Source of the DNA: Malacoraja senta
Lineage: Eukaryota
DNA length: 64,000 nt
Reading direction: 5' to 3'
Assembly (NCBI GenBank): GCA_038087875.1
Contig: CM075988.1
Coordinates: forward strand, 19,408,001-19,472,000
Both the position numbers and the translations under genes were made by a program. Under the pieces are notes generated by a model that ran no database searches, had not been told where the DNA came from, and was given only the letters and a program-made list of their open reading frames with translations. Positions 3,201 to 37,925 of this stretch are shown here, piece after piece (the first letter of the stretch is position 1; every line of letters starts with the position of its first letter).

Positions 3201-3261
3201 AAGGCTCATCCATGAACACTTCATCCAATTGTCCCTCCCAATTTCCCCAAACGAGATCAAG

Positions 3262-8640: not shown

Positions 8641-8653
8641 CTCATCAGCAAGG

Positions 8654-8887
8654 TGTAGAAAGGAACTGCAGATGGTGGTTTAAACTGACGATAGGCACAT
8701 AATTCTGGCATAACTCAGCAGGACAAGCAGCATGTATGGAGAGAAGGAATGGGTGACGTTTCTGGTCGAGACCCTTCTTCACACTAAAGAGTCTAAAGAA
8801 GTGTCTCGACCTGAAATGTCACCCATTCCTTCTCTCCAGAGATGCTGCCTGTCCCGCTGAGTTCCTCCAGCATTTTGTGTCTATCTT
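8654..8887. mobile_element. Palindromic PLE-derived mini-element with 15-bp TSD (copy 2 at 46618..46851)
   Basis: TSD ctctcatcagcaagg at 8639..8653 and 8888..8902. The two arms are inverted copies of the PLE 3' terminus seen at 16981..17073. Confidence 0.85.
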
Positions 8888-9136
8888 CTCTCATCAGCAA
8901 GGGATGTATTCCCAATCTTCCAACCTACATCATTGCAACCCTTGCGCATTTTATAACTGCACTTTCTGTCACTGGAACACCAAATTCCCCATTCTGTTTA
9001 TTTTTTCTTTGCATCATTTGACGTACTCATGTATGATACGATTTGACTGGATAGTATGCAAAAATATGTTTTTTGCTATATCTTGTACATAGGGCAATAA
9101 TAATAAATAAATAACAAGGATCTATTTTCCCGTTAT

Positions 9137-9320
9137 GTGTAGGAAAGAACTGCACATACTGGTTTAAATTGAAGATAGACACAAAATGCTGGAGTAACTC
9201 AGCGGGACAGACAACATATCTGGAGAGAAGGAATCGATGACGTTTCGGGTCGAGTCCCTTCTCCATGTTCTCCAGAGATGCTGCCTGTCCCGCTGAGTTA
9301 CTCCAGCATTTTGTGTCTAC
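9137..9320. mobile_element. Palindromic PLE-derived mini-element with 12-bp TSD (copy 2 at 47101..47284)
   Basis: TSD ttttccc(g/a)ttat at 9125..9136 and 9321..9332. Inverted arms gacacaaaatgctggagtaactcagcgggacag / ctgtcccgctgagttactccagcattttgtgtc. Confidence 0.82.
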
Positions 9321-9894
9321 TTTTCCCATTATTATGTTTTGTTTCTCAGGGTCATTTCTAAATGACAGTTTAAGGCTCAGATCTGTGGCTTAAATCATAT
9401 TTATTTTCAGACACAGGCCATATGTGGCAGAGGGAGATTTAATGCATGCTTTCTACACAAAATATAGTGCACCAGTGGTACATTAATTACATGTAATATG
9501 CTGGCATTCACTATAGTATAGAAAACGACACAGAGGGCTGCAGTACCTCAGCGGGTCAGGCAGCATCTCTGGAGAACATGGAAAGGTGACAGTTTGGGTC
9601 GGGACCATTCTTCAGACGCAGTATAGCATTGTAAAGAATCATGCATTACAGTAACACTTAATATTCTGTAAAATGAAATGACAAAATGGAACTAGCAGGC
9701 TGGTTTTCCCCAAAGATGTTTTAAAATTACACGTTATCAGAACGCTGTAATTTATGGCTATCAAAATGACATCAAAATGTCCCTGAGATCCCAGCGCACA
9801 GCTTCCAACAACAATCAAAACATGCCAGATGTTGAAGATGCCAAGCACAAATTGCTGGAGAATCGGTGGGCCAGGCAGCATCTATGGAGGGAGT

Positions 9895-10210
9895 GGGAGA
9901 GTCCAGGACCAGAGGTCATAGCCTCAGAATTAAAAGACGTTTCTTTAGGAAGGAGATGAGGAGGAATTTCTTTGTTCACGGGGTGGTGAATCTGTGGAAT
10001 TCATTGCCACAGAAGATTGCGGCGGCCAAGTCAATGGATATTTTTAAGGCAGAGATAGATAGATTCTTGATTAGTATGGGTGTCATGGGTAGAAGGCAGG
10101 AGATGGGGTTAAGAGGGAAAGGTAGATCAGCCATGATTGGATGGCGGAGTAGACAAGCCTAATTCTGCTCCTATCACTTATGAACCTATGAACTTATGAA
10201 CTTATGAACT
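9895..10210 (+). mobile_element. CR1 3' fragment with (tatgaact)n tail (copy 2 near 47859..48174)
   Basis: [13 protein letters not shown]...VVNLWNSLPQK C-terminal motif and an 8-bp tandem tail. Confidence 0.85.
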
Positions 10211-11409
10211 TCCTTGTTGTTGATGGTCACAACTCCGACCTCTGGATCAAGAGGTCAAGTATCTAACCATTCCTCGGTTGTACATGACAGAGATTAGGAC
10301 CGAGTGGATTGCAGATTGTCAACAGTGTTAACGTTCACACACCACACTAAACAGAGGCTTTATCCGTCCACTCAGGGGGATAACAAGTGCTTCAAGTCCC
10401 TATTACCAGAGTTCCCTCAGTATTTTAAAAATAATTCCACGTCTTATTTTAGATCAAGCGACATAGAAACTACTGGCAGATTTGTCTACAATACACTTTG
10501 AACTTTGGAAGATATATTGGTGCAAGAAGTTGAAAACCGTGGCCACCAGGTTTAGGAACAACTTCTTCCCAGCAACTATCAGGCTCTTGAACACCACACA
10601 ACACTAACCTCAGCAACTATGATCTTCTATGGACTGTGTCTCTGGTTGCACTATGGACCGGTTTGGCATTATTATGGTTGTCCAGCATTGTGATTATTAA
10701 TTTCTTGTGTTATTGATTATTAAATATTTATCTATATGTTATTGTATTACGGGGCTGTCCAGCTGCAGCGAGTAAGAATTTCATTATTCTGCTGTCGGAA
10801 CATTTGACAATTAAATACTTTCTTGGCACACTCTTAACAAACTTGGACAAACTGTTCTTTGAGAGATGCCAAACGTGATGCCAAGTTAAACTGATCCCAT
10901 CTCCCTGCACGTGATCCATATCCCTCTATTCCCTGAACTTCCATGTGCCGGTCTAAAAGCCTCTTCAACCCAACTATTGTATCTGCCTGCACCACCACCC
11001 TTGGCAACGTGTTCCAGGCCCCACCACCCTCTGTGTAAAAAACTTGCCCTTTAAACTTTCCTCCTCTCACCTTATGTGAGACCAAGATCAGGATAGAACC
11101 TGGGTCTCTGGTGCTGTTTAAGTAGTAGTCCTACTAGCTATGCCACTGTGTCAGCCTGTGCAGTGCCCTGAGATGGATGTGAAAGGTGCTATAGAGAGGC
11201 AATCGTCATTGGTATCGGTATCACTTTACTATTGCACGTGTACCGAGATACAGTGAAATGGTGTGTGCTTGGTCTCAGAAGTGAAGCAAAAAACCTTGCA
11301 GGTCTCAGCTGAGATATTTTATCGGACTTTACCTTGGACTAAACGTTATATCCTTTGTCCTGCATCTGTAAACTGTGGACGGCTTGACTGTAACCATGTA
11401 CAGTCTTTT

Positions 11410-11691
11410 TTTTTTTAATAATAATATTTTTATTAGAAGCAAAGACATATTATGATAAAAACATTTCATGTATATCAATCATAAATTATTAATATTATCA
11501 ATTGTGGATTGATTCTGCTTCTAGTTTTTTTATAGATAAAAAGTGAGAAAGAAAGAGAGAAGAGAAAAAAAAAGAAAACACAAATGTCAAGAGAAAAAAA
11601 AAGAGTGGAATAATTTACTAATAATACATCATTGGAGATATGTTCGTAGGTTATAAAGTATAACTTTTCATCTAATCCTAAGTTCAAGCTT
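11410..11691 (-). mobile_element. Poly(A)-tailed retroposon 3' UTR (L1/Tx1-like), 9-bp TSD; copy 2 near 49374..49655
   Basis: TSD cagtctttt at 11401..11409 and 11692..11700. The minus strand ends cttctaataaaaat...A-run, the same terminal motif as the element at 36610..36964. Confidence 0.6.
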
Positions 11692-12285
11692 CAGTCTTTT
11701 CACTGAGTGGATGGCACGCGACAAAAAAGCTTTTCACTGTACCTTGGTACAAGTGATAATAATATTAAACTCAACTAAACCAGCTGCCCAAACACATCTT
11801 TGATTCAAGAACTTTATCTAATTCAGTGTTTCTCAGGTATATTGTTTTGTAGAATGCAATTAATTGCCTGATTTTCAGAAGCCCTCCCATCCATTTGCGA
11901 TTGCCCTCGTCACCTCTGTACCCAATCGTCATTTAGACCAATCTAGCTACTGCAGGATCTGCAAAATTATAGAAATTGATGTGACCGATCCGTTTATCTG
12001 CAAGACACAAATTCGACAGTAAAATCCATCACATGGACTTAATAGCTTAACCTGACAAACTGGGAGGTGGAAATAGAAACCATATCTTAATCACTTTTAT
12101 TTCTAAATCATTAGTCTTTGGGCTCCAGCTTAGTCAAATTAATACTGCTGTCAAAAATCATATAATTTTGTAAAGCAAGTGCAGCGACTGTATGAGGTAA
12201 GGGATCTTATGCAAACACCAGAAATGGAAGTACAATCCATTGGATTGTGAAATGGAAGAGCCCCTACCATTCACACCTGATACTG

Positions 12286-13326
12286 TAGCAATGTTACAAA
12301 ATTTTGAGATTTTAAAAATAAAGTCTGCAATTTATCCCATCAGATAAAGCATAAAAATAAGTTTAATTTGACACTTAATTCACTTTAATATCTTCAGTAT
12401 TAAAAAAGTTATGGCCATTATCATACTCAGAAATTAGCATCTAGTTCCCTATTACTTTTCCATTGACTTAACACAAAAGCTGTGATCGAGGACAGTTAAA
12501 AGCCCATAACTTTCTTAAAAATTATGATAACTGAAAGAAATTTTCAGTTATTATAGATTGAAGCATTCTGAAACAAATATGAAGCAATCTTACTTCGAAG
12601 ACATGAAAGTAAAGCATATGATTAGTTAGTTACCTAATTGTAGCTAATTACAAAATTCAATTACTAGATCTAAACATCTATCAATTTCTTAAGAATAGAT
12701 TAACATTTTTAAATAGCCTAAGTGTCCAAATAACATTCACACAATAATTCACAATATAACATAATTTTTAAATCTCATTTTCATGAATTTACAGGCCAAA
12801 TGGAAGGAATTGAATGTTTAATATCTGTAAATTAATGGGGATTTAATTCATCCTGCGAGTGAGGATTTCTGGAACGCGATCTTTTGGAACGTTCATTTGC
12901 GGTGAATTTAACCCCGTATTGGCATGAAAAATACTGCCATTAATTCGGGGAATAAAATCACCGTGTCCCATGAAAAAATGTGAATTAAAGGCTTCTTAAG
13001 AAGCACTTTTATACATTTAAAGAAACCACTTTCGTTTACCTGTCCCGTGTGTGAAATCCGTCCCCGTTATCGGCGTTGACGCTTCAGGAGCTGCTTTTAA
13101 AATTACTCCAGCGCTGACATTGACGATTTAAATTTTTTTTTTAATTCACAAAACGCCGGTAGGAACGATTTGTCAGCCAAGGCTTGTACTCCAACAAAAT
13201 ATTAACCAGGACCAGGGAGGAGAAACCCGCGTTTTAACCCCGCCCCTCCTTAAAGGCGCCAAAATCGCGCACACGGCCAGTGGCAGAATTACAGCGCGAC
13301 TGAAGGTAAGTTTTGTAACATACCTA
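12286..13326. mobile_element. Non-autonomous DNA transposon (1041 bp), TAG...CTA termini, 7-bp TSD
   Basis: TIRs tagcaatgttacaaaa / ttttgtaacataccta (14 of 16 match). TSD gatactg at 12279..12285 and 13327..13333. No long ORF. Confidence 0.85.
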
Positions 13327-13404
13327 GATACTGTGCCCCTAAACACAAAGTGCTGGAGGAACTAAGCAGGTCAGGCAGCATCTATGGAGGGAGATGAACA
13401 AAGG

Positions 13405-13550
13405 TGTAGGAAGGAACTGCAGATGCTGGTTTAAACCGAAGATGGACACAGTCTGAAGAAGGGTCTTGACCCGATACCACCTATTCCTTTTCTCCAGAGA
13501 TGCTGTCTGACCCAATGAGTTACTGCAGCTTTTTGGGGTCCATCTTAAGT
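13405..13550. mobile_element. PLE-derived mini-element nested in an older PLE-derived palindrome (13340..13620); copy 2 at 51367..51512
   Basis: TSD tgaacaaagg at 13395..13404 and 13551..13560. Contains ctgaagaagggtcttgacccgata, a degenerate hammerhead core. Confidence 0.75.
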
Positions 13551-13757
13551 TGAACAAAGGTCCTGACCTGTAACATCATCTGCCCATTCCCTCCACAGAC
13601 GCTGTTTGACCCGCAGAACACTTAAGGTTTTAGTTTAAGAAAGAACTGCAGATGCTGGAAAAATGGAAGGTAAACAAAAATGCTGGAGGAACTCAGCGGG
13701 TGAGGCAGCATCTATGGAGAGAAGGAATAGGCGACGTTTCGAGTCAAGACCCTTCTA

Positions 13758-14074
13758 AGTTTAGTTTAGTTTAATTTAGTTTAGAGATACAGCGCGGAAA
13801 CAGGCACTTTGGCCCACCGAGTCCGCGCCGACCAGCAATCCCCGCACACTAACACTATCCAACACACACTAGGGACAACTTACAATTTTACAAAGCCAAT
13901 TAGCCTACAAACCTGTACGTCTTTGCAGTGTAGGAGGAAACTGGAGCTCCTGGAGAAAAAACATGTAGGTCACAGGAAGAACGTACAAACTGCATACAGA
14001 CAGCCCCCTTTAGTCATGTTCGAACCAAGTTTTCTGGGGCTGTAAGGCAGCAACTCTACTGCTGCACCACACTG
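13758..14074 (-). mobile_element. tRNA-derived V-SINE (HE1-like); copy 2 near 51720..52036
   Basis: (tttag)n tail on the plus strand, followed by the reverse complement of the SINE body and tRNA head. Confidence 0.82.
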
Positions 14075-14306
14075 CCTTGAACCGCCCATTTTCTACAAGA
14101 TTCCAGCATCTGTGTTCCCTTGTGTCTCCAAGAATATGAGCCTCGTTCACTTCCCAGCACAATGCGCAAATCCTTCTCTTCGCTCAACTAACCACCAAAA
14201 AACTTTGGGAGTTGAGAGTTCAAGGGATTTACAACCCCCTTGGTAAGGTTCCTCCTAAATGGCTGGATTCTGTTTGCATTTCCACACTAGACTTGAGACA
14301 CCAATT

Positions 14307-14636
14307 CAGTTTAGTTTAGAGATACAGCATGGAAACAAGGCTCTTTAGCCCACCCATGTCCACGCCGACCTATTCACACCAGTTCTATATTATCCCATCC
14401 TATTTCACATCCTATTCCGTTCACACAAGGGGGCAATTTTACAGAGGCTAATTCATCTACCCTCACACACGTCTTTGGGATGTGGGAGGAAACCACAGCA
14501 CCCGGAGGAAACCCACGTCCCACGCAGTCACAGGAAGAATGTGTAAATTCCACACAGACAGCACACAAGGTCAGAATCAAGCCCGGGTCTCAGGTGCAGT
14601 GAAGCAGGAGCTCTACCAGCTGAGCTACTGTGCACC
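14307..14636 (-). mobile_element. Older tRNA-derived V-SINE; copy 2 near 52269..52598
   Basis: Reverse-complement SINE tail, V-domain-like core (tgtgtggaatttacacattcttcctgtg) and tRNA-like head. Confidence 0.75.
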
Positions 14637-15269
14637 CACTAATTTCTCATAACCATAATTATCATTTCCTTTTACATGCAAAAAGCAAAGGCGGGAGGAA
14701 CTCTGCGGGTCAGGCTGTATCTGTGGAGGGAATGATGTTTCGGGTCGGGACACTTCAGATTTGAGTTTGTCCATTCCCTCCGCAGATGCTGCCTGAAACG
14801 TTGAGTTTCTCCAGCACTGTGTGTTTATTTGGTCAAAATTCCAGCATCTGCAGTTTTCTTGCCGGTGGTTCCTTTCACAGCTTTATTACCTTTGATGCAG
14901 CTGCATGAATAACAACTTTGCACAAAATCATTGCACAATATTCTGAAATAATGAAGAATGTGTTCCATGGAGCAGATTTGACAGGGTGCCTAAATGTGTA
15001 TTTTTTGAGTGGATGGTTGGTGATTTGTAAAGGCTTTGCTGAGCTATTCTCTACAAGGAGGCTCAGAATGCGAGAGAATAGAGAATTAACACTACACCTC
15101 ACTCAGTTGGCCTTGGCCTTACCTTAACCCTCCCACCCTTGTATCTCAACAATGAAAATTCTTGTATGAAATACTGTAGAACATGAACATGAGTAATGGC
15201 GTGATGGCTGAGTGAAATATTTCATTGCACTTTCGGTGTGTAGCTTGAATCAAAAGGCATTTCACAACA

Positions 15270-15486
15270 AACGATGCACAATGTCTACAGTAACTCAGTA
15301 GGTCAGGCAGCATCTCTGGAGGACATGAAGAGACGATGCTTCGGGTCGGGACCCTTGTTCAGGCTGATTGCAAGAAAGCTGGAACAAAGGTGAGGGCAGG
15401 ACAAAGCGTGACAAGTGATAGGTGGATACAAGTGAGGCGGGTGGGTTGATGGTTGGTCAAAGACCAGAGATGAAAAGCCAAAAGGC
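15270..15486 (-). mobile_element. Old PLE 3' terminus, left part (split by a CR1 insertion)
   Basis: aactcagtaggtcaggcagcatctctggag...ttcgggtcgggacccttgttcag is the antisense PLE terminal repeat; it continues at 18763. Confidence 0.65.
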
Positions 15487-15948
15487 GGTGGAACAGCAAT
15501 GGCAGGAATTTCTGGGCATAATCCGGAAGACGCAGGATCATTTCATTCCAAAAACGAAGAAAGATTCTAAGGGGAGTAGGAGGCAACCGTGGCTGACAAG
15601 ACAAGTTAGGGATAGAATAAAACTAAAAGAAAAGATGTATAACACAGCAAAGAGTAGCTGGAAGCCAGAGGATTGGGAAACTTTCATAGGACAACAGAAG
15701 GAAACAAAACGGGCAATACGGGCTGAAAAGATGAAGTACGAGGGGAAGCTGGCCAGGAATATAAAGAAGGACAGTAAAAGCTTCTTTAGATATGTTAAGG
15801 GAAAAAGAGTAGCAAAGTCAAATGTGGGTCCCTTGAAGGCAGACACGGGTGAAATTATTATGGGCAATAAGGAAATGGCAGAAGAGTTGAATAGGTACTT
15901 CGGATCTGTCTTCACTAAAGAAGACACAAACAATCTCCCAGATGTACT

Positions 15949-16868
15949 CCATCGCAGGTGATAGACTCCTTACCGACATCCACTACAAACCTACCGACTC
16001 CCATGGCTATCTGGACTACACTTCTTCCCACCCTGCTTCCTGTAAGGACTCCATCCCCCACTCCCAATTCCTCCGTCTACGCCGCATCTGCTCCCAGGAT
16101 GAGGCGTTCCACACCAGGGCATCTGAAATGTCCTCATTCTTCAGGGAACGGGGGTTCCCCTCCTCCACCATAGATGAGGCTCGCACCAGGGTCTCTGCCA
16201 TACCCCGCAACACTGCTCTCTCTCCCCATCCCCCCACTCACAACAAAGGCAGAGTCCCCCTAGTCCTCACCTTTCACCCCACCAGCCGTCACATACAACA
16301 AGTGATCCTCCGTCAGTTTCGCCACCTCCAACGTGACCCCACCACTCGCCACATCTTCCCATCTCCCCCTATGTCTGCCTTCCGCAAAGACCGCTCCCTC
16401 CGTAACTCCCTTGTCAATTCTTCCCTTCCCTCCCATACCACCCCCTCCCCTGGTACTTTCCCTTGCAACCGCAAGAGATGCAACACTTGTCCCTTCACTT
16501 CCCCCCTCCACTCCATTCCAGGACCCAAGCAGTCGTTCCAGGTGCGACAGAGGTTCACCTGCATCTCCTCCAACCTCATCTATTGCATTCGCTGCTCTAG
16601 ATGCCAGCTGATCTACATCGGTGAGACCAAGCGGAGGCTTGGCGATCGTTTCGCCGAACACCTCCGGTCGGTCCGCAATAACCAACCTGAACTCCCGGTG
16701 GCTCAGCACTTCAACTCCCCCTCCCATTCCGTATCTGACCTCTCTGTCCTGGGTCTCCTCCATGGCCACAGCGAGCAACACCGTAAATTGGAGGAAATGC
16801 ACCTCATATTCCGCTTGGGCAGTCTACACCCTGGTGGCCTGAACGTTGAATTCTCCCAATTCTGCTAG
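15949..16868 (+). pseudogene. Uninterrupted C-terminal part of the PLE ORF: RT thumb, Cys-rich linker and GIY-YIG endonuclease
   Basis: TDIHYKPTDSHGYLDYTSSHP, SQFLRLRRICS, FPCNRKRCNTC, NLIYCIRCSRCQLIYIGETKRRLGDRFAEH, VAQHF, GLN. The ATG at 15942 comes from the target site. Confidence 0.9.
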
Positions 16869-16982
16869 CCCTGGCTGTCCCCTCCCCTTCATCAGCCATC
16901 TGGTTGTCTCCTCCCCTCCCCCAACCCTCGGGCTCCTCCTCCTCCTTTTCCTTTTTTCCTTTCTTCTCCCCACCCCCTATCA

Positions 16983-17014
16983 GTCTGAAGAAGGGTTTCG
17001 GCCCGAAACGTTAC
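16983..17014 (+). ncRNA. Minimal type I hammerhead ribozyme-like motif in the PLE terminal repeat
   Basis: GU-CUGAAGA-A-GGG(UUUCGG)CCC-GAAA-CG-UU-AC: conserved CUGANGA and GAAA boxes, a stem II, and palindromic AACGUU in place of stem III. Stem I is only about 2 bp. Confidence 0.65.
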
Positions 17015-18762
17015 CTATTTCCTTCGCTCCATAGATGCTGCTGCACCCGCTGAGTTTCTCCAGCATTTTTGTGTCCCAGATGTACTGGAGGACAGAGGAT
17101 CTAAGGGGGTAGAGGAACTGAAAGAAATTTTCATTAGGCGAGAAATAGTATTGGGTAGGCTAATGGGACTGAAGGATGATAAATCCCCTGGGCCTGATAG
17201 TCTGCATCCCAGGGTCCTCAGGGAGGTGGCTCTAGAAATAGTGGACACATTGGTGATCATTTTCCAATGTTCAATAGATTCAGGATCAGTTCCTGTGGAT
17301 TGGAGGATAGCTAATGTTATCCCACTTTTCAAGAAAGGAGCGAGAGAGAAAACGTGGAATTACAGACCAGTTAGCCTGACTTCGGTGGTGGGAAAGATGC
17401 TGGAGTCAATTATTAAAGAGGTAATAATGGGGCATTTGGATAGCAGTAAAAGGATTAGTCCAAGTCAACATGGATTTATGAAAGGGAAATCATGCTTGAC
17501 TAATCTTCTGGAATTTTTTGAGGATGTGACAAGTGAAATGGATGAAGGGGTGCCAGTGCATGTAGTGTATCTACACTTTCAGAAAGCCTTTGATAAGGTC
17601 CCGCACGGGAGACTGGTGACTAAAATTAGAGCACATGGTATTGGGGGTAGGTTGTTGACATGGATAGAAAATTGGTTGGCAGGCAAAGAGTAGGAGTGAA
17701 CGGGTCCTTTTCAGAATGGCAGGCAGTGGCGAGTGGAGTGCCGCAAGGCTCGGTGTTGAGGCCGCAACTGTTTACCATATATATTAATGATTTGGAAGAG
17801 GGAATTAGGAGCAACACTAGCAAGTTTGCAGATGACACAAAGCTGGGTGACAGTGTGAACTGTGAAGAGGATGTTAGGAGGTTGCAGGGTGACCTGGACA
17901 GGTTGAGTGAGTGGGCAGATGCGTGGCAGATGCAGTATAATATAGATAAATGTGAGGTTATCCACTTTGGCGGCAAAAACAAGGGGGCAGATTATTATCT
18001 CAATGGGGTTAGGTTAGGTAAGGGGGAGGTACAGCGAGACCTGGGTGTCCTTGTACACCAGTCACTGAAAGTTGGCGTGCAGGTACAACAGGCAGTGAAG
18101 AAAGCTAATGGATGTTGGCCTTCATAACAAGAGGATTTCAGTATAGGAGTAAAGAGGTTCTTCTGCAGTTGTATAGGGCTCTGGTGAGACCACATCTGGA
18201 GTATTGTGTACAGTTTTGGTCTCCTAATTTGAGGAAGGACTTCCTTGTGATTGAGGCAGTGCAGCGTAGGTTCACGAGATTGATCCCTGGGATGGCGGGA
18301 CTATCATATGAGGAAAGATTGAAAAGACTAGGCTTGTATTCACTGGAGTTTAGAAGGATGAGGGGGAATCTTATAGAGACATATAAAATTATAAAAGGAC
18401 TGGGCAAGCTAGATGCAGCAAAAAATGTTCCCAATGTTGGGCGAGTCCAGAACCAGGGGCCACAGTCTTAGAATAAAGGGGAGGTCATTTAAGACTGTTG
18501 AGAAAAAACTTTTTCACCCAGAGAGTTGTGAATTTATGGAATTCCCTGCCACAGAGGGCAGTGGAGGCCAAATCACTGGATGGATTTAAGAGAGAGTTAG
18601 ATAGAGCCCTAGGGGCTAGTGGAGTCAAGGGATATGGGGAGAAGGCAGGCACGGGTTATTGATGGGGGACGATCAGCCATGATCACAATGAATGGCGGTG
18701 CTGGCTCGAAGGGCTGAATGGCCTCCTCCTGCACCTATTTTCTATGTTTCTATGTTTCTATG

Positions 18763-19035
18763 AGATAAGAAGAAAATGAAAGGAAATGTGAAGTCAGAAA
18801 AAAAAGGGCAAAGTTTGAAGGGGATGGGAAGAAGGGGAAAGGGGGGAGTGGGATTGTGGAAGAAAATGGGTGCACATCCAGGAGGGGCACAGGGAAGAGG
18901 GGGAGGAAAATGGGGGGGGGGGGAGGTATTTGTAGGTTAGGTACCTAAAATTGGAGATTTCACTATTTATACCATTGGGTTATAGGTAACACAATGGGAT
19001 GAGGTACTGTACCCCCAGTTTGATATGTCCTCACA
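18763..19035 (-). mobile_element. Old PLE 3' region, right part (degenerate end of the endonuclease ORF)
   Basis: The reverse complement caaactgggggtacagtacctcat...cccaatggtataaatagtgaaatctccaatttt aligns by eye with the PLE C-terminus KLEEMHLIFRLGSLHPGGLNVEFSQF at 16786..16868. Confidence 0.65.
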
Positions 19036-19479
19036 GCATTACTCTAGTGTACAGAGAATATAGTGTAACATAGAAGTGGTGTGAACAGGTGATCTATAGC
19101 CCAAAAACGGAGACCTCTACCAGCCAAGGATTTAGGATAGTAGGTAAAAGGGAAAACACTATCTTCAGGTTCCCAATTCAATTCCAACTCAATCTCCATC
19201 CTGTAGTAAAATATTACTGTAAGTAGTAAAAAAAAAGTACAGGTACAGTAATGGAATAAGTGAATGAGGTAACGTTAAGAGTAAGAGTTAAGAGCTACTG
19301 TTGTAATACGGCAGTGGTTTTATGGGAGTACGTGCCAGTAGGGCATGCCAGCACCTCTAAAAAGATGAGTTGAATGGCCTTATAATCTTGGTGAAACATG
19401 GCACGATATTTATCATTGATGGTCAAACTGGGTCTTCTTTCGCTTGCGGAGGTGAGGCTGAAGGGTGACTAGCAGTCTT

Positions 19480-20725
19480 GCACGTGGGAGTTCTTGTCTC
19501 ACAAATCTGATTAGAATTTTTTGAAGATGTGACCAAAAAGGTCGATGAGGGCAGAGCTGTAGATGTTGTGTACATGGATTTCAGTAAGTCATTCGACAAG
19601 GTTCCGCATGGTATGCTGCTCTGGAAGGTTAGATCGCATGGGATCCAAGGAGAGACAGCTGAATGGATAGCAAATTGGCTCCATGGAAGGAAGCAGAGGG
19701 TGATGGTGGAAGGTTGCTTCTCAGACTGGAGGCCTGTGACTAGTGGTGTACCTCAGGGTTTGGTGCTGAACCCGTTACTGTTTGTCATCTACATCAATGA
19801 TTTGGATGAGACCATTCAGGACAAGATTAGCAAGTTTGCTGAAGATACAAAAGTGAGTGGTTTTGCAGATAGTGAAGATGGTTGTGAAAGATTGCAGCAG
19901 GATCTCGATCGATTGGCCAGGTGGGCAGAGGAATGGTTGATGGAATTTAATACAGAGAGGTGTTGCATTTTGGGATGTCGAACAAGGGCAGGAACTACAC
20001 AGGTAGGCCTCTGAGTAGTGTTGTAGAGCAGAGGGATCTAGGAGTACAGGTGCATGGTTCCTTGAAGTTCGAGTCACAGGTAGATAAGGTGGTCAAAAAG
20101 GCTTTTGGCACATTGGCCTTCATCAGTATTGAGCAGAGAAGTTGGGAGGTCATGTTGCAGTTGTATAAGACATTGGTGAGCGCATTTAGAATATTGTGTT
20201 CAGTTCTGGGCATCATGTTATAGGGAAGATGTTGTGAAGCTTGAAAGGGTTCAGAAAAGATTTACGAGGATGTTGCCAGGGCTAGAGGGTGTGAGCTAGA
20301 GGGAGAGGTTGAGTAGACTGGGTCTCTATTCCATGGAGCACAGGAGGATGAGGGGGAATCTTATAGAGGTGCACAAAATGATGAGAGGAATAGATCGGGT
20401 AGATGCACAGAGTCTTTTACCCAGAGTAGGGGAATCAAGGACCAGAAGACGTAGGTTCAAGGTGAAGGGGAAAAGATTTAATAGGAATCTGAGGGGTAAC
20501 TTTTTCACAAACAAGCTGCCAGAGATGGTAGTTGAGGCTGCGACTATCCCATCGCTTAAGAAACAGTTAGACAGGTACATGGATAGGACAGGTTTGGAGG
20601 GATATGGACCAAACGCAGGCAAGTGGACCAGTGTAGCTGGGACATTGTTGGCCGGTGTTGGCAAGTTGGGCCGAAGGGCCTGTTTCCACACTGTATCACT
20701 CCATGCCTCTATGACTTTGACTCTA
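19480..20725 (+). mobile_element. 5'-truncated CR1 LINE (second subfamily), RT plus 3' UTR
   Basis: YMDFSKSFDKVPH, SGVPQG and KFAEDTK motifs; tail gggccgaagggcctgtttcc shared with the SINEs. Confidence 0.9.
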
Positions 20726-21715
20726 ACATGAAAAGGTTTGATGGGACAGATAGGAGAAAGAGATAGATCAATCATGATTGAATTGCGGAGTAGACTTGAT
20801 GGGCCAAATGGTGTAATTCTGCACCTATTACTTATGACCTTATGGATGCAGAGATGTTTCCAGGTGTGGGGTAGTGTATAACTCGAGGCTGTCAATGGAA
20901 AAGGGTCACCAAGACATATGACAGGGAATTTAGTACGTCCTTACCAAAGAACAGGGAGAATGTGAAGTATGCTTGTACAGGGAATGATCGAGGTGAATAA
21001 TGTGGTCACATGAAAGGGAGACTGGATGAGCAAGTAACTGAACAGGGAGCAGAGGATCACAGTTATAGGTTTAAGTGAGGAAGGAATGGGAGAGTGCAGC
21101 GTAAATGCCAGCACACTCTAATCGTGCCGTGTGCCCTGTGATTTTAGCAATCTCATCTCCTGGGTCAAGGTAAAATCAGTTTGAGCAGATAATGACAGAA
21201 TTTTCTGCAGAGGAGGCAGATTGCCAGAGAGTATCTATGAGCGATCTCTGCAACAGGCAGCTGTAACATCAATGAACATCAGTAACACGGCTGTGCAGGA
21301 TGTGAGTTACAGCTGATATCAGCCAGAGAGGAAGTAACACTGATCAATTTAAGCCCCGCTTACTTATCACGCAACTGCTAATATACGCGATTCCACACTG
21401 ACATTTTATCTAAAGTATTCTTCAGTCTTAGACGCTTAGAGTCGTTTGTTGAACTCAGGACTTAGTTTTTTGCACCAGTGTTACGGTTATTAATTTCTTG
21501 AATTTATTATATATTATATATATTATACATTATTATACATATGTGGGTATTAAATATATGGGCCAACAAAAATGCCACAAGTGAGAAATTCATTGTACTG
21601 TTTTCATTAAAAATTACAATTGATTCTTCAATGTTAGAACCATAGTTTCATACAGCACAGAACCAGGCCCTTCGACCCAACTCGTCTTGCCAACCAAGGG
21701 ACACCTAAGCTAGTC

Positions 21716-25276: not shown

Positions 25277-25892
25277 GTTGGATGATCAGCCATGATCATA
25301 TTGAATGGCGGTGCAGGCTCGAAGGGCCGAATGGCCTACTCCTGCACCTATTTTCTATGTTTCTATGTTTCTAGTCCCATCTGCCTGCATTCAACCAATA
25401 TCCCTTTAACTATTTCCTATGCAGATACCTGCCTAACTGGCTCTTAAATGTTAATATTATACCTGCCTCAGCTTCATCTAAGAGCTCGTTCCCAATGCCC
25501 ACTATCCTGTTTGAAAAAATGCCCCTCAGGCTCCTATTGAATCATTCCCCTCTCACCATAAACCTATGCCCTTGATTCCCCAACCCCAGGATAAAGACTC
25601 TGTGCATGCACCACATCTATTCCCTCATGATTTCATAAACCTAAAATCTCCCCTCAGCCTCATGTTCTTCCAGGAATAAAGTCCTAGCCTGCCCAACCTC
25701 TCCCTGTAGCTCAGGCCCTCAAGTCCTGGCCACATCCTTGTAAATCCTCTCTTTCCTCAGCCCATTTTACATTGATCTTCACTGCAAGCCCGAAAGCTTC
25801 CACTGTGCACACACCATTCCCTGGATGGAAACCTGTTCCTTGCCCACACCCTCACTGAGTGAAAATCGTGCATCTATACACTGTAAATCAAG

Positions 25893-26799
25893 TATCTATC
25901 ATTGGCAGACACTCGAAATGAGTATGACTGTCCTCTCATGGAGGACGCCTGTGCGTGACTTTGTTTAACGTGGGGAGACTGGTGCACAGATGAAAGAGTT
26001 AGTTATTAATTGATTGTTGTCATATTTAAGCCTTCCTGTTGTAAAAGGCCAATTGTAATGCATGATGGGATGTGGACAACTCCTATCATGCCAGGTTTTT
26101 TTCTTTTAAGTTGAAAAGTTCACAGCTCTCTTGCAAGTTTTTTTAGGTAAGTTGAAGAGGTTAATCAGATAAGAAGGGGCCCAGAGGATGCCATTTGGGA
26201 TGACTGGCTTTTGGCAAAGAGTGAAAAACAACTCCATATTTGGAGGTGGATGATGGTTTTTGTACATTACATCATGCAATTGGTTTTATATCTGTACGTA
26301 TATAAACTCTGGAGATTCTGTACGTATATTTTATATCTGTACGTATATAAACTGCTGGAGATTCAGACGTGAAACTGTTGCCTCTAGGTCTCTAGGTCTG
26401 CACCCGTCAGACGTTAAATTAAAGCTTTGTATGGTCTTAAGAATTTGTACTTTGTCTATCATTCTAAGTGAACTTTTTCACAGACAGCCACCCCTTCTGT
26501 CCTTGACAGATCTGGGTCAGGATCCAGTGGCATGGAGTCCAAGGCAACCAGAGACCCTTTTCTGCTGCAGCCTTCATCGGCCTTCCCAGCCGTTGTGACA
26601 CTCCACTAAAGTCAGCCATCATCCTCTGCCTGTTCCACCGTTGAGGTCTTGGTTGGATTGCTCTTTCTCAGAGACCTCCCCCTCGACCTTACCACCATGG
26701 ATGGCCCGACCAGGAGCAAAGCTCCAGACGGCATCGCTCTCAGGATCTCAGGACCACACAAGCTTCTCCACCACGACAAGGTGACAATCCACGTGGGAG
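25893..26799 (-). mobile_element. Bipartite non-autonomous RTE-derived element (5' UTR plus 3' end), interrupted by a solo LTR; copy 2 at 61969..62875
   Basis: The minus strand starts ...caccttgtcgtggtggagaagcttgtgtggtcctgagatcctgagagcgatgcc (RTE/Expander-like 5' end) and ends ...tttcgagtgtctgccaatgata. Possible TSD aaatc(a/g)ag at 25885..25892 and 26800..26807. Confidence 0.6.
25991..26480 (+). mobile_element. Solo LTR (490 bp), retrovirus-like, 4-bp TSD
   Basis: TG...CA ends; terminal inverted repeat tgaaagagtt / aactttttca (9 of 10 match); TSD caga at 25987..25990 and 26481..26484; tatataaa boxes followed by attaaa. Confidence 0.82.
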
Positions 26800-28199
26800 A
26801 AATCGAGGCTCGATTGTAATCATGTATTGTCTTTCCGCCGACCTGGTTAGCACGCAACAGAAGCCTTTCACTGTACCTCGATGTGTTAGGAGACGGCACA
26901 TGAGTGAGTTTCTCCACTTGAACACACATTTTGGCACAGTCAGGAGGAGAGCAGTTATTGATCTGCAGCCGAAGAAGCAATCAATCCTCATTCGATTGAA
27001 TTATACCCAACGCCCACCAACAACGTTATAAAAACCAAGAACAACGAGATGAGCCGTGCAAACAAACGGCATGGGAATATGGAGCCTGGCACCAGCCATC
27101 CATTACTGCAAACTAATTGTTGCATAATATGATTACATTCACAAGAAGTCAGGACTGCCACTTTATCCGCGGTTTAACAGTCCTTTATACGGAACTATAA
27201 TGGAGTGGTTAAGGTTACTGTAATCAGTTAATGCACTTAGCTGTCATAAACTGCCACAACATATTGCTAACAGCATTCATTTTGTATAAGCCAAGTGAGC
27301 ACACACTGCTTACAATGGTTGCTGTTAACTGATTCAAGGTTTGCTGGAGGTTCAAAGCGGTGTTTGTTGAAATGTTACTCATCATTCATTGAAAAAAAAA
27401 ACAGACGCTTTAATTACTCCTTGGATTCAGACTAATAGAATTTCCATGGCTGTTGTACAAGTCTAATTTGTGTTGCAACCAATTATCTAATTACGCTGCT
27501 TGCAAATAGAATGGTTGCTCTGAGACAAAAGGAACTGCAGGCACTGGAGTCTAAAGAAAAATACAAAGTGCTGGAGGAACTCAGCACGTCAGGCAGCATC
27601 TATGGAGAGAATGGACAGACAATGTTTCAGGTCGGGACCCTTCATCGGACACAAAATTTTGCTAGTTTTAACAATAAGCACATTTAAAAGATTTTCGGAC
27701 AGGTACATGGACAGAAAGGTTTTAAAGGAAAGGGGGGCAAATTATTATTTATACAGTATATTATATATTATATAAATTATCATTTATTATTGTCACGTGT
27801 ACCGACATACAGTGAAAACCTTTTTTTTGTTGCGTGCTATCCAGTCAGCGAAAAGACTATAGTTCATTAAAATCACGCCATCCACAGTGTACAGATACAG
27901 GATGAAGGGAATGATTAGTGCAAGATAAAGTCCAGTAAGGTCCGATTGAGGATAGTCCAAAGGACTGTAACGAGGTAGAGGGTAGGTCAGGAGAGCGGCA
28001 AATGAGACTAGTTTAGATGGTGCATCTGGGTCTGCATGGATGAGTTGGACTGAAGGGCCTGTTTCCATGCTGTCTGGCACCATGCATGGCAAGACAAATT
28101 TCACTACACCAATTGGTGTATGTGATAATAAATGTCCTTTGTCCTTTGTCCTTTGTCTCATCACTCTAGTTTCAGCGTGAAAGTCTCCCGTCAACCATC

Positions 28200-29450: not shown

Positions 29451-29879
29451 CAGTCTCCTCTGTGCACAATCTTCCCGGAGATGCAGTCACGCAGTCGTAC
29501 TCTTAACTCAACTTTGTTCAGTTCCTGTAGCTTAAATTTTTTTGCACTATGGAAAAATAGTTGTGCAACAATCACGCACCATTCTGCTGTTTTGCACTAA
29601 TTGCGGTGTTCATTGTTGTATTTACCATTATCATATGTATACTGTTTACTCTGTGAGCTTCATGTGAACAGGGAATTGATTGCATCCTGATGAACGCGAC
29701 CATCGACCAATGAATAGGTAATGGTTCCAAGCCAAACTCACTCCTGCAATAACAAGGAACTTCAGGTGCTGCCTTATACCAAAGATAGACACAAATTTTG
29801 GAGTAACTCAGTGGACTAGGCAGCATCACCGGAAAACGTGGATAGATGACGATATATCACCGATCCATGTTCTCCAAGG

Positions 29880-30855
<976 letters not shown>

Positions 30856-31623
30856 CTCCAAGGATGTCATCTGACCCGCAGAGTCATTCCAAACCCCAAA
30901 CATCCATTCCATCTTTCTAGCTGCACATAAGCCAATATATTGCAACTTGTAGGCAATTGTTAACATTTTTGTGAGAAACTATTGATACTTGTCCAATAAT
31001 TGCCGCTAATTGGCATTTGTTAAATATCTTTAATTGTTTTTTGAGTGTTTCGGTATTTTAAGTTTTCTTATTATTTCTTTAGGTGTTTAATATATGTTTA
31101 ATATAATTTCATTGATTTTTAATAGACACCCAACCATTTTCAAAGACAGCTGTCAAAGCCTGCAGGTGTGAATTAACTGGCTATTTAAGGCTCTCCTGTA
31201 GCTGCCTCACCTTGAATACCATTATTAATCAGATGATCAATTAGCTTTTTCCTTAAATAGAAAATTATATAATTGGCATGTTATTAATTGCTTTTGCTGG
31301 CAGTCAATTCCTTATATGCTTCCATCCATGGGGAGAAGTGGTGTTAATTTGCAGATTTTACTGAAGGCTTGTTAATTTTATGCTTACTTCATTTGGTTTT
31401 GGGGGTCAAGATGGGAGTTAAATACTGTGGATTATTTATGATCTATTTTGCCTCCCTTAGGCTTTGGCAGAGATTTTACATGACACAGTTCCATTATTCC
31501 AGGTTTAAGAATTATACGCCACATCTTCCAGAAGAGAGTGCAAAAGCCAGCATGGACCAGAAACCATGATCATCAGGCTGAAACAACGAGGTTATTCCAA
31601 CCGCCACTCGTGAAACCAGGAAA

Positions 31624-32709: not shown

Positions 32710-32808
32710 AAGATAGACACAAAATGCTAGAGTAACTCAGCGGGCCAGGCAGCATATCTGGAGAAAAGGAATAGGTGACGTTTCGGGTCAGGACCCTTCT
32801 TCAGACAC
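32710..32808 (-). mobile_element. Approximately 99-bp single-arm PLE-terminus insertion with 12-bp TSD
   Basis: TSD aggattaaagag at 32698..32709 and 32809..32820. The body matches the PLE 3' terminus. Confidence 0.85.
32775..32806 (-). ncRNA. Minimal hammerhead ribozyme-like motif (best-conserved copy in the window)
   Basis: Minus strand GU-CUGAAGA-A-GGGUC(CU)GACCC-GAAA-C-GUC-AC, with a canonical GUC triplet. Confidence 0.65.
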
Positions 32809-33246: not shown

Positions 33247-33446
33247 NNNNNNNNNNNNNNNNNNNNNNNNNNNNNNNNNNNNNNNNNNNNNNNNNNNNNN
33301 NNNNNNNNNNNNNNNNNNNNNNNNNNNNNNNNNNNNNNNNNNNNNNNNNNNNNNNNNNNNNNNNNNNNNNNNNNNNNNNNNNNNNNNNNNNNNNNNNNNN
33401 NNNNNNNNNNNNNNNNNNNNNNNNNNNNNNNNNNNNNNNNNNNNNN
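33247..33446. other. Assembly gap (200 N)
   Basis: Run of 200 N between the two duplicate copies. Confidence 0.99.
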
Positions 33447-33699: not shown

Positions 33700-34741
33700 T
33701 TTAGTGATTAATGAGGTAATTACATGATAAAATACATTTAAATCACAGTGATTTATCTTTTGATATAAGACCCCTTCATGGTCAACAGGCCAATATTATG
33801 TGATTAACATCACCTTTCATTTTCAGCACAACCGTGGACTACTGCAGATGTTGGAAATCTGAAACAAAATCAGAAACTGCTGGAAATACTCAGTAGGTCA
33901 GGCAGCATCGATGAATCTCGTTTTTTGGGAAATGGCAAAGACTGGACTAAGGTGAGAAGAGGAAAATGTAAAGGAGATGTGTGGGCAAGTTTTATTTACA
34001 CAGTGAGTGATGGGGACCTGGAACATACTACCAGGGTGATGGTGCAGGCAGATATGATAGTGAAGTTTAAGGGCGTTTTAGACAGGTATGGATATGCAGG
34101 GAATTGAGGAATAAGGATCATGTGCTGGCACAAGAGATTAGTTTAACATGGCATCGTGATTGTGAGCTGTAAGGCCTCTTCCAGTGCTGTACTGTTCTAC
34201 GCTCCATGTTTTAATACTTCTTCATGAGATAGAAGAAGGCTATTTGGCCCATCAAGTCCATGCTAGCACGAGTGCCATGGCCTCCCCCTGCGACCTATTG
34301 TCTCTCTCGTGTCCATTAATGGCCCTCCCAGCTGAACCAGGGGTAATACACGGTGGCTAATTTATCACCCTGCTCATCTGGGTGAGGGGTGGGGGAGAAC
34401 AAAGGAGGACCCACTGAGAACTAAGGGGGGACCACAAATGGAATGTGTTAAAAATGGTTTGCGTAAAATTTATTATTTTTGTAACTCTGTTGGCGCCCTT
34501 TATGTGGCGACTCTTTGCATTCCGTAACAAAGAATATCACTGCGACTCGTCACTTGTGACAATAAAGTATCATTCATTCATTCATTCATTCATTTATCCT
34601 TAGGATGTGGGAGGAAACAGGAGCACACAAGGAATGTCAAGGAAGAACATGCAAACTCCAGACAGACAGCACCGGATGTCAGGAGCAAACCCAGGGCACT
34701 GAAGGTTTGGTGACAGCTCAATCCTCGGCTGGTGAGAGAGG

Positions 34742-34815
34742 CAGCCTTGAAATTCATTCTTGGCGAGTCGAGGCAAACAGCCTTGAAATTCATTCTTGGC
34801 GAGTCGAGGCAAACA
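34742..34815 (+). repeat. Perfect 36-bp tandem duplication (cagccttgaaattcattcttggcgagtcgaggcaaa)x2
   Basis: Direct observation. Confidence 0.92.
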
Positions 34816-34911
34816 TGCTGCCTGGAGGAAGCAGACCAAATCCAATAGAATGAACTTCAGAGGCAGAGTAAGCAGACTGCTGGTCCTGCACAGTGTATTA
34901 GTGCTACCAAT

Positions 34912-35968
34912 TCTTCTTCTTTTCGTGTCTTTGAAGCTGGTTGGCTATATGACAGTTTCCCATTCCTTTACACAGTCCTTTGCGTTTTTATTGAACACTG
35001 CAAGATCCTTTGAGCTGCACTGGTTGGGTAGTAGGGGGCAGACAAGGCAGTGCTGCATTGTGTGGTCCTCTTCTCCACATTCACAGGTGGTTTGGCCAGT
35101 TTCATAGCCCCATCTGGCCATGGCATCTTTTGATCGCCCTGTTCCTGTTCTCAGGCAGTTGAGCGTCTTCCACTGGACCCATGGTGCTTCTGAGCCCGGA
35201 GGGAGGGCTTCAGAAGGAGGGATACCCATGTCAGTAGGAGGGCGGTCGTCCTGAAGCCTTTTTGTCCATAGTTGGAGTCTGGTTTCTTCCCGTGATGCTA
35301 TTAGGGGCTGGACATGGCTGAGAAAGCTTCTCCTGGACTTCAGCCGTTGGGCCGGGGGTACACGTCCGTAGAGGAGGTGGCGTTCATCATTGGTGGCCTT
35401 GGTCATCTCTACTCGGCTGGCGACTTTCCGTCTCACATCAGCAGGGGCAATGCCAGCGAGGAGGTGCAGGTTGTTTATGTTGGTGGGCTTCAAGCAACCA
35501 GTGATTGAGCGGCAGGTGTTATTCAACGCTGGGTCTAGTTTCTTGGCATGGGATGATCTCTCCCAAACAGGACACGCATACTCCGCAGAGGAGTAGCACA
35601 GGGCCAGAGCAGTAGATCTTAATGTGTGAGCTGTGGCTCCCCATTTGGAGTTGGTCAGCTTCTGGAGAATGTTATTCCGGGAGTTTACTTTCAGTTTGGT
35701 GTTTTTGACGTGTTCCTTATAGGAGAGAGTGCGATCCAGTGTTACACCGAGGTAGACAGGGTTGGTGCAGTGCTCAAGTGGTGTTCCAGACCATGTGATG
35801 TTAAGGGGTCTGTTTGCTTCCCGGTTCCTGAGATGGAACGAGCAGGCTTGGGTCTTCGCAGGGTTTGCGTGTAGGTGGTTGCGCTCGTAGTAGAGGTGTA
35901 GCTCATCTAGGGCTGAGGTGAGATTCGCTTCTACAGCTTCAAACGTACTCTCTTGGGATGTTACACAG
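34912..35968 (-). mobile_element. 5'-truncated Ingi/Vingi-type non-LTR retrotransposon, 12-bp TSD
   Basis: TSD agtgctaccaat at 34900..34911 and 35969..35980; (AAG)n tail; very short 3' UTR. Confidence 0.85.
34945..35968 (-). pseudogene. Uninterrupted C-terminal ORF of the Vingi-like element (RT C-terminus plus CCHC finger, no recognisable RNase H)
   Basis: ANPAKTQ, YLGVTLDRTLSY, KWGATAHTLRSTALALCYSSAEYACPVW, ITGCLKPT, LRTGTGR, CECGEEDHTMQHCLVCP. Confidence 0.82.
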
Positions 35969-36039
35969 AGTGCTACCAATGACAGATGAAGATCTATCCA
36001 ACAAAGTTAATGCTTCAGGAGAGTTTCATAGAATGTTTC

Positions 36040-36580
36040 ATAGAGTCATAGAGCATGGAAGTAGGCCCTTCAGCCCATCTTGACCATGCCAACCAAAATG
36101 CTTCAACATAGCTGGTACCATATCCTGCATTTGGCCCATATTTCTCAATCTTTTCTATCCATGTACCTACCCAAATATATTTTAAATATCATTATTGTAC
36201 ATGCATGAACTACTTCCTCTTGCTGCTACTCATTCCATACATCCACCACTCCCTGAGTGAACAGTTGCCACCCCCCAGGTTTTTATTAAATCTTTCCTCT
36301 CTCACCTTAAAATGATGCCTTCTCAGTCTTGATTCCACTGCACTGGGAAAAAAGATAATTCTGAGCATTTACCCGATCTATTCCCCTCGTGATTTTAGAC
36401 ACCTCTCCCAGATCACGCCTCATCCTCCTGCACTACAAGGAATGAGGTCCAAGCCTGCCCAACCTCTCCCTGCAGCTCAGGCTCTCGAGTCCTGGCAACA
36501 TCCTTGTAAATCTTCTCTGCACCCTTTCCAAATTAATGGTATCTTTCATATAGCAGGGTGACCAAAACTGAACACAATAC
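36040..36580 (-). mobile_element. CR1 3' fragment
   Basis: Antisense CR1 3' UTR (catagagtcatagagcatggaa...) and ORF2 end. Confidence 0.8.
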
Positions 36581-36609
36581 TCTAATTTGATCAAATGGAA
36601 AAAAATATA

Positions 36610-36964
36610 TATATATTTTTTTTAATTTTTATTTATTAGAAGTACATTACATTACAACCACATACATTAGTACTCGTCATTTATATCTTCTTACAATTAA
36701 TGTACTCCATTTATTTTTTACACTAGAAAAGGAAAAGATTGAAAGAAAGAAGAAAGTGAAGGAAAAAGTGAAAGTGTAGGAAATGTGACAACAAAAAGGG
36801 ACGAAGACCCTATAAGAGCAAAATTAAAAACAAAAGAAAAAGAGTTAAGAAATAGACCCTAGGAAAGAAAGAAAGAGAGAAAGAGGAAAAAGAGAGAAAC
36901 AAATATTTTTATGAGCATTACGTAAATGGGACATACCAACTCTTCAACTATCATCCCCCCTTAC
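36610..36964 (-). mobile_element. Poly(A)-tailed retroposon 3' UTR (L1/Tx1-like)
   Basis: Flanked by caaatggaaaaa..tata duplicates (about 36592 and 36965). The minus-strand end is cttctaataaa followed by an A-rich tail. Confidence 0.55.
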
Positions 36965-37540
36965 CAAATGGAAAAATATAATCAACATATACTCTATTGA
37001 GTATTATTTCGCATAATTGATACATCATACCTGGAAGCAAATATAGTTCCCGCAGTCAAAGTTCTTCAACAAAAGTAAGAGACAAAATGAATCAAATGCT
37101 GGGAAGAAGGGGAGAATAGTACGGGAAGGTATGTGGAGTGCAAATGAAAAATGTGTTGGTGTGAAGTCGTGTTGGGTTGCCAATTGATTTGAGTAAAAGG
37201 TGACGTGATTGGGGTTTGGATATGAAGGATTAGGAGAACCATTATGTTGTGATCTGGCCTGCTGCAGAGTCCGAGACGAATGACCTGCTGAGATACATTG
37301 TGGTGAAAATTAAGCAGGGGTAAGTGAGAATGGAAAATGAAATAGGAAAGGAACACATGAAGTGAGAGACGGCAATGCTTTGAGGCAATGCTTTCTGTTC
37401 TTCTTCACAAAATGTGAACAATGCCAGTAATGTCAACATTAATTATCCATCCGTAAATACCCTTGAACTGAGAGGGAAGGTAAAATGTCATGTAAAAGCC
37501 AGACCAGGCATGGGAAACAGATCACCCTCGCCGGGCATTA

Positions 37541-37925
37541 GACTACGGTGGTGCTGCGATAGAGTTGCTGCCTTACAGCAGCAGAGACCCGGGTTCGATC
37601 CTGACCTCAGGTGCTCTCTGTACGGAGTTTGTACGTTTTCTCCGGGTGCTCCGTTTTCTTCACGCTTTCCAAAGACGTACAGGTTTGTAGGTTGACACAC
37701 AAAATGCTGGAGTAACTCAGCGGGTGAGGCAGCATCTCTGGAGAGCAGGAATGGGCGACGTTTCGGGTCGAGACCCAAGGTTCCCGACACAAAACGTCTT
37801 CCCATTCCTTCTCTCCAGAGATGCTGCCTCACCCGCTGAGTTACTCCAGCATTTTGTGTCTACCTTCAATTTAAACCAGCATCTGCAGTTCTTTCTTACA
37901 CAGGTTTGTAAGTTAATTGGTTTCC
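37541..37925 (+). mobile_element. V-SINE interrupted by a PLE-derived palindrome
   Basis: tRNA head with gggttcgatcc; the body resumes at 37901. Confidence 0.8.
37694..37900. mobile_element. Palindromic PLE-derived mini-element with 14-bp TSD
   Basis: TSD caggtttgta(g/a)gtt at 37680..37693 and 37901..37914; near-perfect inverted arms. Confidence 0.87.

Follow-up and report, generated by a model that had tools for sequence, protein, structure and literature searches.

Short insertions derived from the hammerhead-bearing terminus of a Penelope-like element (PLE), here called minis, are spread densely over a 64,000-nucleotide stretch of Malacoraja senta DNA (assembly GCA_038087875.1, contig CM075988.1, positions 19,408,001 to 19,472,000 of the forward strand; hereafter the window), where they occur as single arms or as head-to-head fold-backs. 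The minis are probably (at a rough probability of 0.68) dead-end insertion products of a high-copy PLE family of the Neptune/Nematis type, each made in one event by the PLE protein.

Such an event would begin with the endonuclease nicking both target strands 11-16 bp apart, and reverse transcription would initiate at two internal sites of the RNA, one on either side of a short tail. If both nicks primed synthesis, one complementary DNA (cDNA) would be made from each start site, both running toward the hammerhead, and the head-to-head joining of the two cDNAs would leave a fold-back in which one arm bears the tail; priming from a single nick would leave a single arm. Synthesis would be halted abruptly immediately 5' of the hammerhead, at either the RNA 5' end or a processing site, and the copies would be short because the start sites lie only about 95-130 nt from that point. 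Ribozyme cleavage would not be required.

Composition, ends and junctions of the minis

A profile of 138 positions (U1-138), built from seven arms, describes a unit of about 135 nt that comprises the hammerhead-bearing terminal repeat (pseudo-long terminal repeat, pLTR) and the tail of a Neptune/Nematis-type PLE. The tail of about 35 nt (U104-138) is present in several arms and missing from the one PLE copy that bears an open reading frame (ORF). The original prediction, made from the letters of the window, had described a unit of about 100 nt, single or head-to-head, originating in the terminus of a PLE and carrying a minimal type I hammerhead. Profile and core motif support that derivation and the arms are arranged as described, while the length has to be raised to about 135 nt, the tail not being in the PLE copy.

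The window consists of animal DNA rich in repeats, among them many fragments of long interspersed nuclear elements (LINEs). Positions 1-15,948, 17,074-17,229 and 18,021-27,923 are repeated at 37,966-64,000 with an identity of 98.1-99.4 %; a 200-N gap (33,247-33,446) separates the two copies of the region, which are probably two haplotypes assembled in tandem, and minis in the duplicated part occur in both. Loci were counted in positions 1-37,965 only: 25 of the 43 profile matches in the window fall there, and the other 18 belong to the second regional copy and do not count as insertions of their own. The count yields 18 loci (seven head-to-head fold-backs, ten single arms and one ORF-bearing copy), or about one per 2.1 kb, with terminus-only copies far outnumbering ORF-bearing ones (17 loci versus one), which supports the high density and the excess of termini originally proposed.

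Abutting direct repeats of 11-16 bp with no more than one mismatch flank seven of the 14 intervals tested (8654, 9137, 13406, 32710, 37694, the PLE copy, and 14686 at 11 bp), and the remaining seven have repeats of only 5-9 bp. Among 3,000 random intervals, repeats of at least 12 bp were found in one and of at least 10 bp in ten, and the observation of minis flanked by target-site duplications (TSDs) far exceeds chance. The five insertions named in the original prediction are real, with TSDs of 12-16 bp (in order 15, 12, 14, 16 and 15 bp, at most one mismatch each); only four of them are fold-backs, 32710 being a single arm. All six sites listed there as decayed match the unit profile. Several insertion ends have one or two bases in common with the target. 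The terminus-only loci are as follows, with inner ends given as left/right.

8654..8887, fold-back: left arm U6-137 with tail (minus strand), 4-nt spacer, right arm U6-103; inner ends U6/U6; TSD 8639-8653 / 8888-8902, 15/15
9137..9320, fold-back: left arm U13-138 (tail), right arm ~U42-100 with a different subfamily motif; inner ends U13/~U42; TSD 9125-9136 / 9321-9332, 11/12
13406..13550, fold-back inserted into an older copy's hammerhead region: left arm just ~U92-136 (tail plus ~11 nt), right arm U6-104; inner ends ~U92/U6; TSD 13395-13405 / 13551-13561, 11 exact, or 14 bp with at most one mismatch
13337..13620, older fold-back interrupted by the 13406 insertion: left arm ~U45-99, right arm from ~U10; inner ends ~U45/~U10; no TSD found, no clear tail
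14677..14868 (locus 14686), older fold-back: left arm from ~U8 (set by eye across a short deletion; the profile match starts at U14), right arm ~U39 to tail; inner ends ~U8/~U39; candidate TSD 14666-14676 / 14869-14879, 10/11
29750..30891, older fold-back: left arm U33-135 with tail, right arm from U35, split by a 976-bp insert bounded by terminal inverted repeats, with an 8-bp duplication; inner ends U33/U35; own TSD not found
37694..37899, fold-back: left arm U17-99, right arm ~U15-136 (tail); inner ends U17/~U15; TSD 37679-37693 / 37900-37914, 14/15
32710..32804, minus strand, single arm: ~U8-103, intact minimal hammerhead core (32804-32777, GUC); TSD 16 bp with one mismatch, or 12 exact if the element runs to 32808
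13634..13757, minus strand, single arm: ~U13-137 with tail, in a TTTAG repeat from which a TSD is inseparable
2023..2143, minus strand, older single arm: ~U6-127; no TSD
9525..9620, minus strand, older single arm: ~U7-99; no convincing TSD
15275..15367, minus strand, older single arm with pyrimidine-rich sequence upstream
27528..27652, minus strand, older single arm: ~U7-132; no TSD
1158..1243, plus strand, decayed single arm (profile match)
4141-4214, 9827-9892 and 33841-33913, all minus strand, decayed arms (profile matches)

Three of these insertions lie within 420 bp (13337-13757) and adjoin the TTTAG tail of a short interspersed repeat. The insert in the right arm of 29750 (29880-30855), which we take to be hAT-like, has imperfect terminal inverted repeats of about 14 bp, an inner palindrome (30371-30564) and a long GT microsatellite. 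The pyrimidine-rich sequence upstream of the 15275 arm (15368-15490) may be the 3' untranslated region (UTR) of another PLE subfamily; its comparison with the UTR of the PLE copy gave no significant match (score 36, shuffle mean 34).

The pairs of inner ends differ in all seven fold-backs, spanning U6 to ~U91, and none of the seven junctions lies at the predicted cleavage site (U36/37), so that the turn of the hairpin is not fixed at the hammerhead, contrary to the proposal. The outer ends are confined to two windows, ~U96-104 and U136-138, which are also used by 32710, 13634 and the PLE copy. The tail is carried by one arm only in all five fold-backs with a TSD or candidate TSD, and likewise in 29750. 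Since both outer ends are fixed, both look like priming sites.

These ends bear on the original prediction that the hairpins form a non-autonomous family, transcribed and re-inserted whole by the PLE protein. Such a family would agree with the density of seven fold-backs in 37.8 kb, with the stability of the hairpin (z -19; predicted energy of 37694..37899, -137.9 kcal/mol) and with the existence of non-autonomous PLE derivatives (MRC1, described in the part of PMC8557442 available, and retrozymes), and among the 15 of 262 contig joints listed from the public runs described below a few recur at modest depth. Against it, the seven fold-backs have no junction in common within the window, the very outcome that the prediction had named as contrary to a self-propagating family; they fall into at least three sequence variants of the unit, none has an intact ribozyme core, and re-copied hairpin RNA should leave one outer end variable, while both lie at the start windows. 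The lone opposite-strand joint among those listed is represented by three contigs. On this evidence, re-insertion of whole hairpins is not supported and is the least likely of the readings weighed here.

A different single-event origin is self-priming, in which one cDNA would fold back and copy itself into an inverted arm, as put forward in PMC3846280 (consulted in excerpt, as were the other papers cited by accession), the centre of the hairpin being deleted later. It requires the tail-less arm to be nested within the span of the tailed arm, as is seen at 8654, 37694, 9137 and 29750, and it would explain the derived changes common to both arms (three at 37694, two at 8654). However, the arms of 13406, and less securely those of 14686, are not nested, each arm of 13406 holding sequence absent from the other; these arms are not copies of each other, which argues for priming from both target nicks. 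The variant at U98 common to both 13406 arms is as expected for one template. At 9137, a motif at U42-48 of the right arm is absent from the left arm and present in the older copies 9525 and 29750; it is frequent in public contigs (416 contigs at 17018 in run X1), which also speaks against self-priming and suggests, in this one case, that the two arms came from two RNA templates. Unequal decay of the arms, considered as a sign of different templates, was dropped as not significant (11 versus 4 at 8654, p=0.12; others p=1.0). Self-priming appears unlikely.

The 5' limit and the hammerhead motif

Arms that extend far enough mostly stop at a sharp boundary just 5' of the hammerhead. Among 16 arms bounded by a fold or a TSD, 11 end downstream of U8, a flat rate of 0.008 per nt over 1,418 nt, and five of the seven arms that reach U8 (five of the bounded arms, the PLE copy and 15275) stop at U6-8, with a binomial p of about 1e-7 for a window that was picked after seeing the data and an arm, the left one of 14686, that was placed by eye. 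Arms 2023, 9525 and 27528 also lose similarity at U6-7 and were left out of the test, having no TSD. The alternative offered with the original prediction, that the minis are separate products of single events, therefore fits better than a propagating family, although not in its form of random truncation, because the 5' limit at U6-8 is sharp.

Four of 24 listed public runs (X1, which may come from the source sample, and X5, X21 and X24 from two other organisms) were aligned to 16,200-17,095 at 80 % likeness. Depth, which is not a copy number, was higher in the bins of the unit than in every ORF bin in all four, and rose at 16,980 relative to the preceding bin by 4.7-fold in X1 and 26-fold in X5. 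Among the 24 of 3,081 loose ends listed, all 5' ends lie at 16,979-16,983; those at 16,982/16,983 (U6/U7) show agreement of 0.32-0.39, as for unrelated flanks, and most of those at 16,979/16,980 are rich in pyrimidines, as expected of other UTRs.

The limit coincides with a pyrimidine tract and CAG, and presumably sits at an initiator-like motif. By analogy with Drosophila virilis Penelope, it may correspond to a promoter start or a splice acceptor. That element has an internal promoter in its pLTR (PMC2377424) and an intron whose end, at ribozyme helix I, has the same position relative to the ribozyme as the limit here (PMC4209133). No GT..AG joint was present among the 15 of 262 joints listed, and the listed loose ends have no common upstream exon.

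A promoter at this position would also allow solo single arms to replicate by themselves, a short RNA of the kind produced by short interspersed nuclear elements (SINEs) starting in the pLTR and feeding both single and fold-back insertions. This unlikely reading, which is compatible with priming from both nicks, draws on the sharp limit at the presumed initiator-like motif, on the promoter precedent in D. virilis, on a unit depth several times the ORF depth in the public runs and on the finding that no mini is more than 87 % identical to the ORF-linked terminus. Weighing against it, the transcript of the autonomous element itself would give the same limit, and the RNA reads that cover the unit come almost equally from both strands (about 1.1:1), as for passengers in host transcripts, with no pile-up of ends.

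The unit motif opens with CUGANGA (U9-15), followed by one unpaired base, a 4-bp stem II, GAAA, CG and UH, with the predicted cut after U36, and fits the minimal hammerhead of PMC4209133 as far as that source was available. The core is intact in two of the 25 aligned arms, the PLE end (16985-17012) and 32710 (32804-32777), with a variant in the 2023 arm (2138-2111). By pattern scan, none of the fold-back arms in the 25-arm alignment has an intact core. No hammerhead family was among the eight Rfam matches at E<=1, which are sub-threshold hairpin models; predicted folds of monomer and dimer prefer a competing hairpin over the hammerhead, and inspection gives helix I a length of only about 2 bp. 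In two runs, RNA ends did not pile up over the unit, which is weak evidence regarding self-cleavage. A metagenome pattern match (locus L001) was judged to be due to chance, only the 20-nt pattern fitting, in GC-rich unrelated DNA.

Two further observations concern the unit. In the profile consensus and several arms (16985-17073 and others), a reading frame that starts at the CUG of the core stays open; no translation of the unit as an ORF start matched any of 83 homologues at E<0.2. A contig joint of 17073 to 17014 with one G between, present at depths of 382 and 137 in two organisms, coincides with the predicted cleavage site provided that 17013 is taken to be the common G variant.

The ORF-bearing copy and its surroundings

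The single ORF-bearing locus is a 5'-truncated PLE inserted in a LINE, with the following parts.

15949..17073, plus strand: PLE copy of Neptune/Nematis type, 1,125 bp; TSD 15936-15948 / 17074-17086, 13 exact
15951..16868, plus strand: ORF fragment of 305 aa with the C-terminal part of the reverse transcriptase (RT), a CX4CxxC linker and a GIY-YIG endonuclease
16869..16983, plus strand: 3' UTR, pyrimidine-rich, ending in CAG
16985..17012, plus strand: minimal type I hammerhead core, GUU, predicted cut 17012/17013

Positions 16982-16984 (U6-8) of this copy correspond to the 5' limit of the minis. The copy is absent from the second copy of the region, which has a single target site there (~53897-53909); the insertion is recent or polymorphic, and the PLE family thus moved after the two copies had split. 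About 790 bp of LINE sequence (17230-18020) are likewise absent from the second copy (~54048-54053), with a short GGGAGGT match at the break.

The 305-aa frame has no RVT_1 match, the RT core being missing, and its GIY-YIG match (E 2.8e-4) lies barely below the Pfam cut-off. Eighty-three longer homologues were found at E<=1e-20, mostly with RVT_1 on record, and homologues of 535-1,058 aa cover most of the frame in alignment. In homologue P0003, RVT_1 (288-475) precedes GIY-YIG (705-785), as it does in P0021, and the offset of the homologues suggests that the fragment lies after the RT core. Among the named homologues, a protein of the shark Chiloscyllium punctatum has the best identity, 65 % over one half of the query. 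The CX4CxxC linker at residue 172 and the cysteines within the GIY-YIG core point to an endonuclease-bearing (EN+) PLE of Neptune or Nematis type, an assignment by linker and endonuclease that does not separate the two clades; according to PMC8557442, as available, Neptune and Nematis have a CX2-5CxxC linker before the endonuclease, which Penelope/Poseidon do not, and two cysteines inside GIY-YIG.

This copy had been presented as the autonomous partner of the minis, a role that it cannot have, since it is truncated and the termini of the 22 other arms compared are only 65-87 % identical to its own, so that it belongs to another subfamily than every mini. Elsewhere in the window, an open frame of 353 aa (34945-36006, minus strand) presumably represents the C-terminal part of another non-LTR retrotransposon, and a long frameshifted LINE at 21808-25007 is assumed to be CR1/L2-like, with esterase-like, endonuclease and RT frames.

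Relation to known PLE insertions and significance

Complex insertions of EN+ PLEs have been described in which an inverted, 5'-truncated pLTR is accompanied by a 30-40 bp tail at one end and a TSD (PMC3846280; PMC8557442), and inverted pLTRs and short extensions are known PLE features (PMC8969392). The minis resemble these insertions in the head-to-head arrangement, the tail of about 35 nt on one arm, the variable TSD and the hammerhead in the terminal repeat, and are a minimal-size form of the published pattern of inverted copy plus tail. They differ from the published cases, as far as the sources were available, in having no ORF between the arms, a whole length of 95-234 bp, a density of about one locus per 2 kb and a sharp 5' limit, and their TSDs of 11-16 bp compare with 8-10 bp in rotifer examples. 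Minimal hammerheads of metazoan PLEs, found as single motifs and as opposite-strand pairs 100-700 bp apart, have been read as probable truncated PLEs (PMC4209133); the unpaired base before stem II and the CG at 15.2/16.2 are common to those and to the unit core, whereas the accessible text gives no analysis of TSDs, junctions or ends, such as is provided here for the minis, and names no cartilaginous fish. Non-LTR retrozymes, which are defined by units in head-to-tail tandem, each having its own ribozyme, and by circular RNAs (PMC7229834; bioRxiv 10.64898/2026.07.22.740005), are likewise non-coding, hammerhead-bearing and related to PLE pLTRs, and dispersed retrozyme monomers exist. Unlike them, the minis are single or head-to-head with mostly broken cores, and no retrozyme-type tandem of two complete units was present among the 43 profile matches.

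The closest biochemical parallel is PAc, the Poseidon element of Anolis carolinensis, for which, in vitro, nicking and extension occur on both strands and two internal RT start sites enclose the tail, the protein being a predicted dimer and ribozyme mutants still inserting (PMC11167929). The minis similarly have two end sites bounding the tail and, at 13406, an insertion into their own pLTR, and the dispensability of the ribozyme in PAc is a further likeness. PAc represents another clade, the ORF here carrying the CX2-5CxxC linker of Neptune/Nematis, and inverted insertions are not addressed in the available part of that work, which counts against transferring its mechanism to the minis. Several other points weigh against origin in single events primed at both nicks. 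Only seven fold-backs were sampled, and if longer precursors later lost their palindrome centres by deletion, both the geometry of 13406 and the uniqueness of the junctions could result. The different subfamily motifs in the 9137 arms are not explained by one RNA template. Part of the depth step at 16,980 comes from other subfamilies whose UTRs differ; the listings cover only 15 of the 262 joints and 24 of the 3,081 loose ends and contig runs are under-counted, and some contig joints reach a depth of 250-490, so that a few may be multi-copy. Furthermore, two poly(A)/oligo-dT runs show no accumulation of RNA ends at U6.

A wider proposal, which we advance tentatively and hold to be doubtful in its entirety, is that twin priming by an RT dimer on a short RNA starting 5' of the hammerhead, sometimes on two RNAs (as at 9137), makes the inverted repeats and one-sided tails of PLEs in general, and that this short RNA, possibly from solo copies, gave rise to the SINE-like mass of minis in cartilaginous fishes. 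A literature search that excluded subscription journals, supplements, Dfam and Repbase found neither a description of such minis in cartilaginous fishes nor a paper pairing twin priming with pLTRs. The sharp stop of the arms just 5' of the hammerhead and the two fold-backs whose arms are not copies of each other are apparently undescribed in print.

As the description of a family alone, the minis would be ordinary, and their value lies in what they may reveal about dual priming and the 5' limit. The origin of the inverted repeats and one-sided tails of PLEs has been called undefined (PMC8557442, as available), and minis hold both ends and the junction in less than 240 bp about every 2 kb, so that one genome would give thousands of events. 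A catalogue of these could separate dual priming from self-priming and locate the 5' limit of the RNA. Minis also seed near-perfect hairpins through the genome, which are read on both strands in RNA data and imitate miniature inverted-repeat transposable elements and microRNA precursors, and their correct annotation is needed. If twin priming is true, the junctions and ends of the minis would be a genome-scale read-out of a step in PLE transposition.

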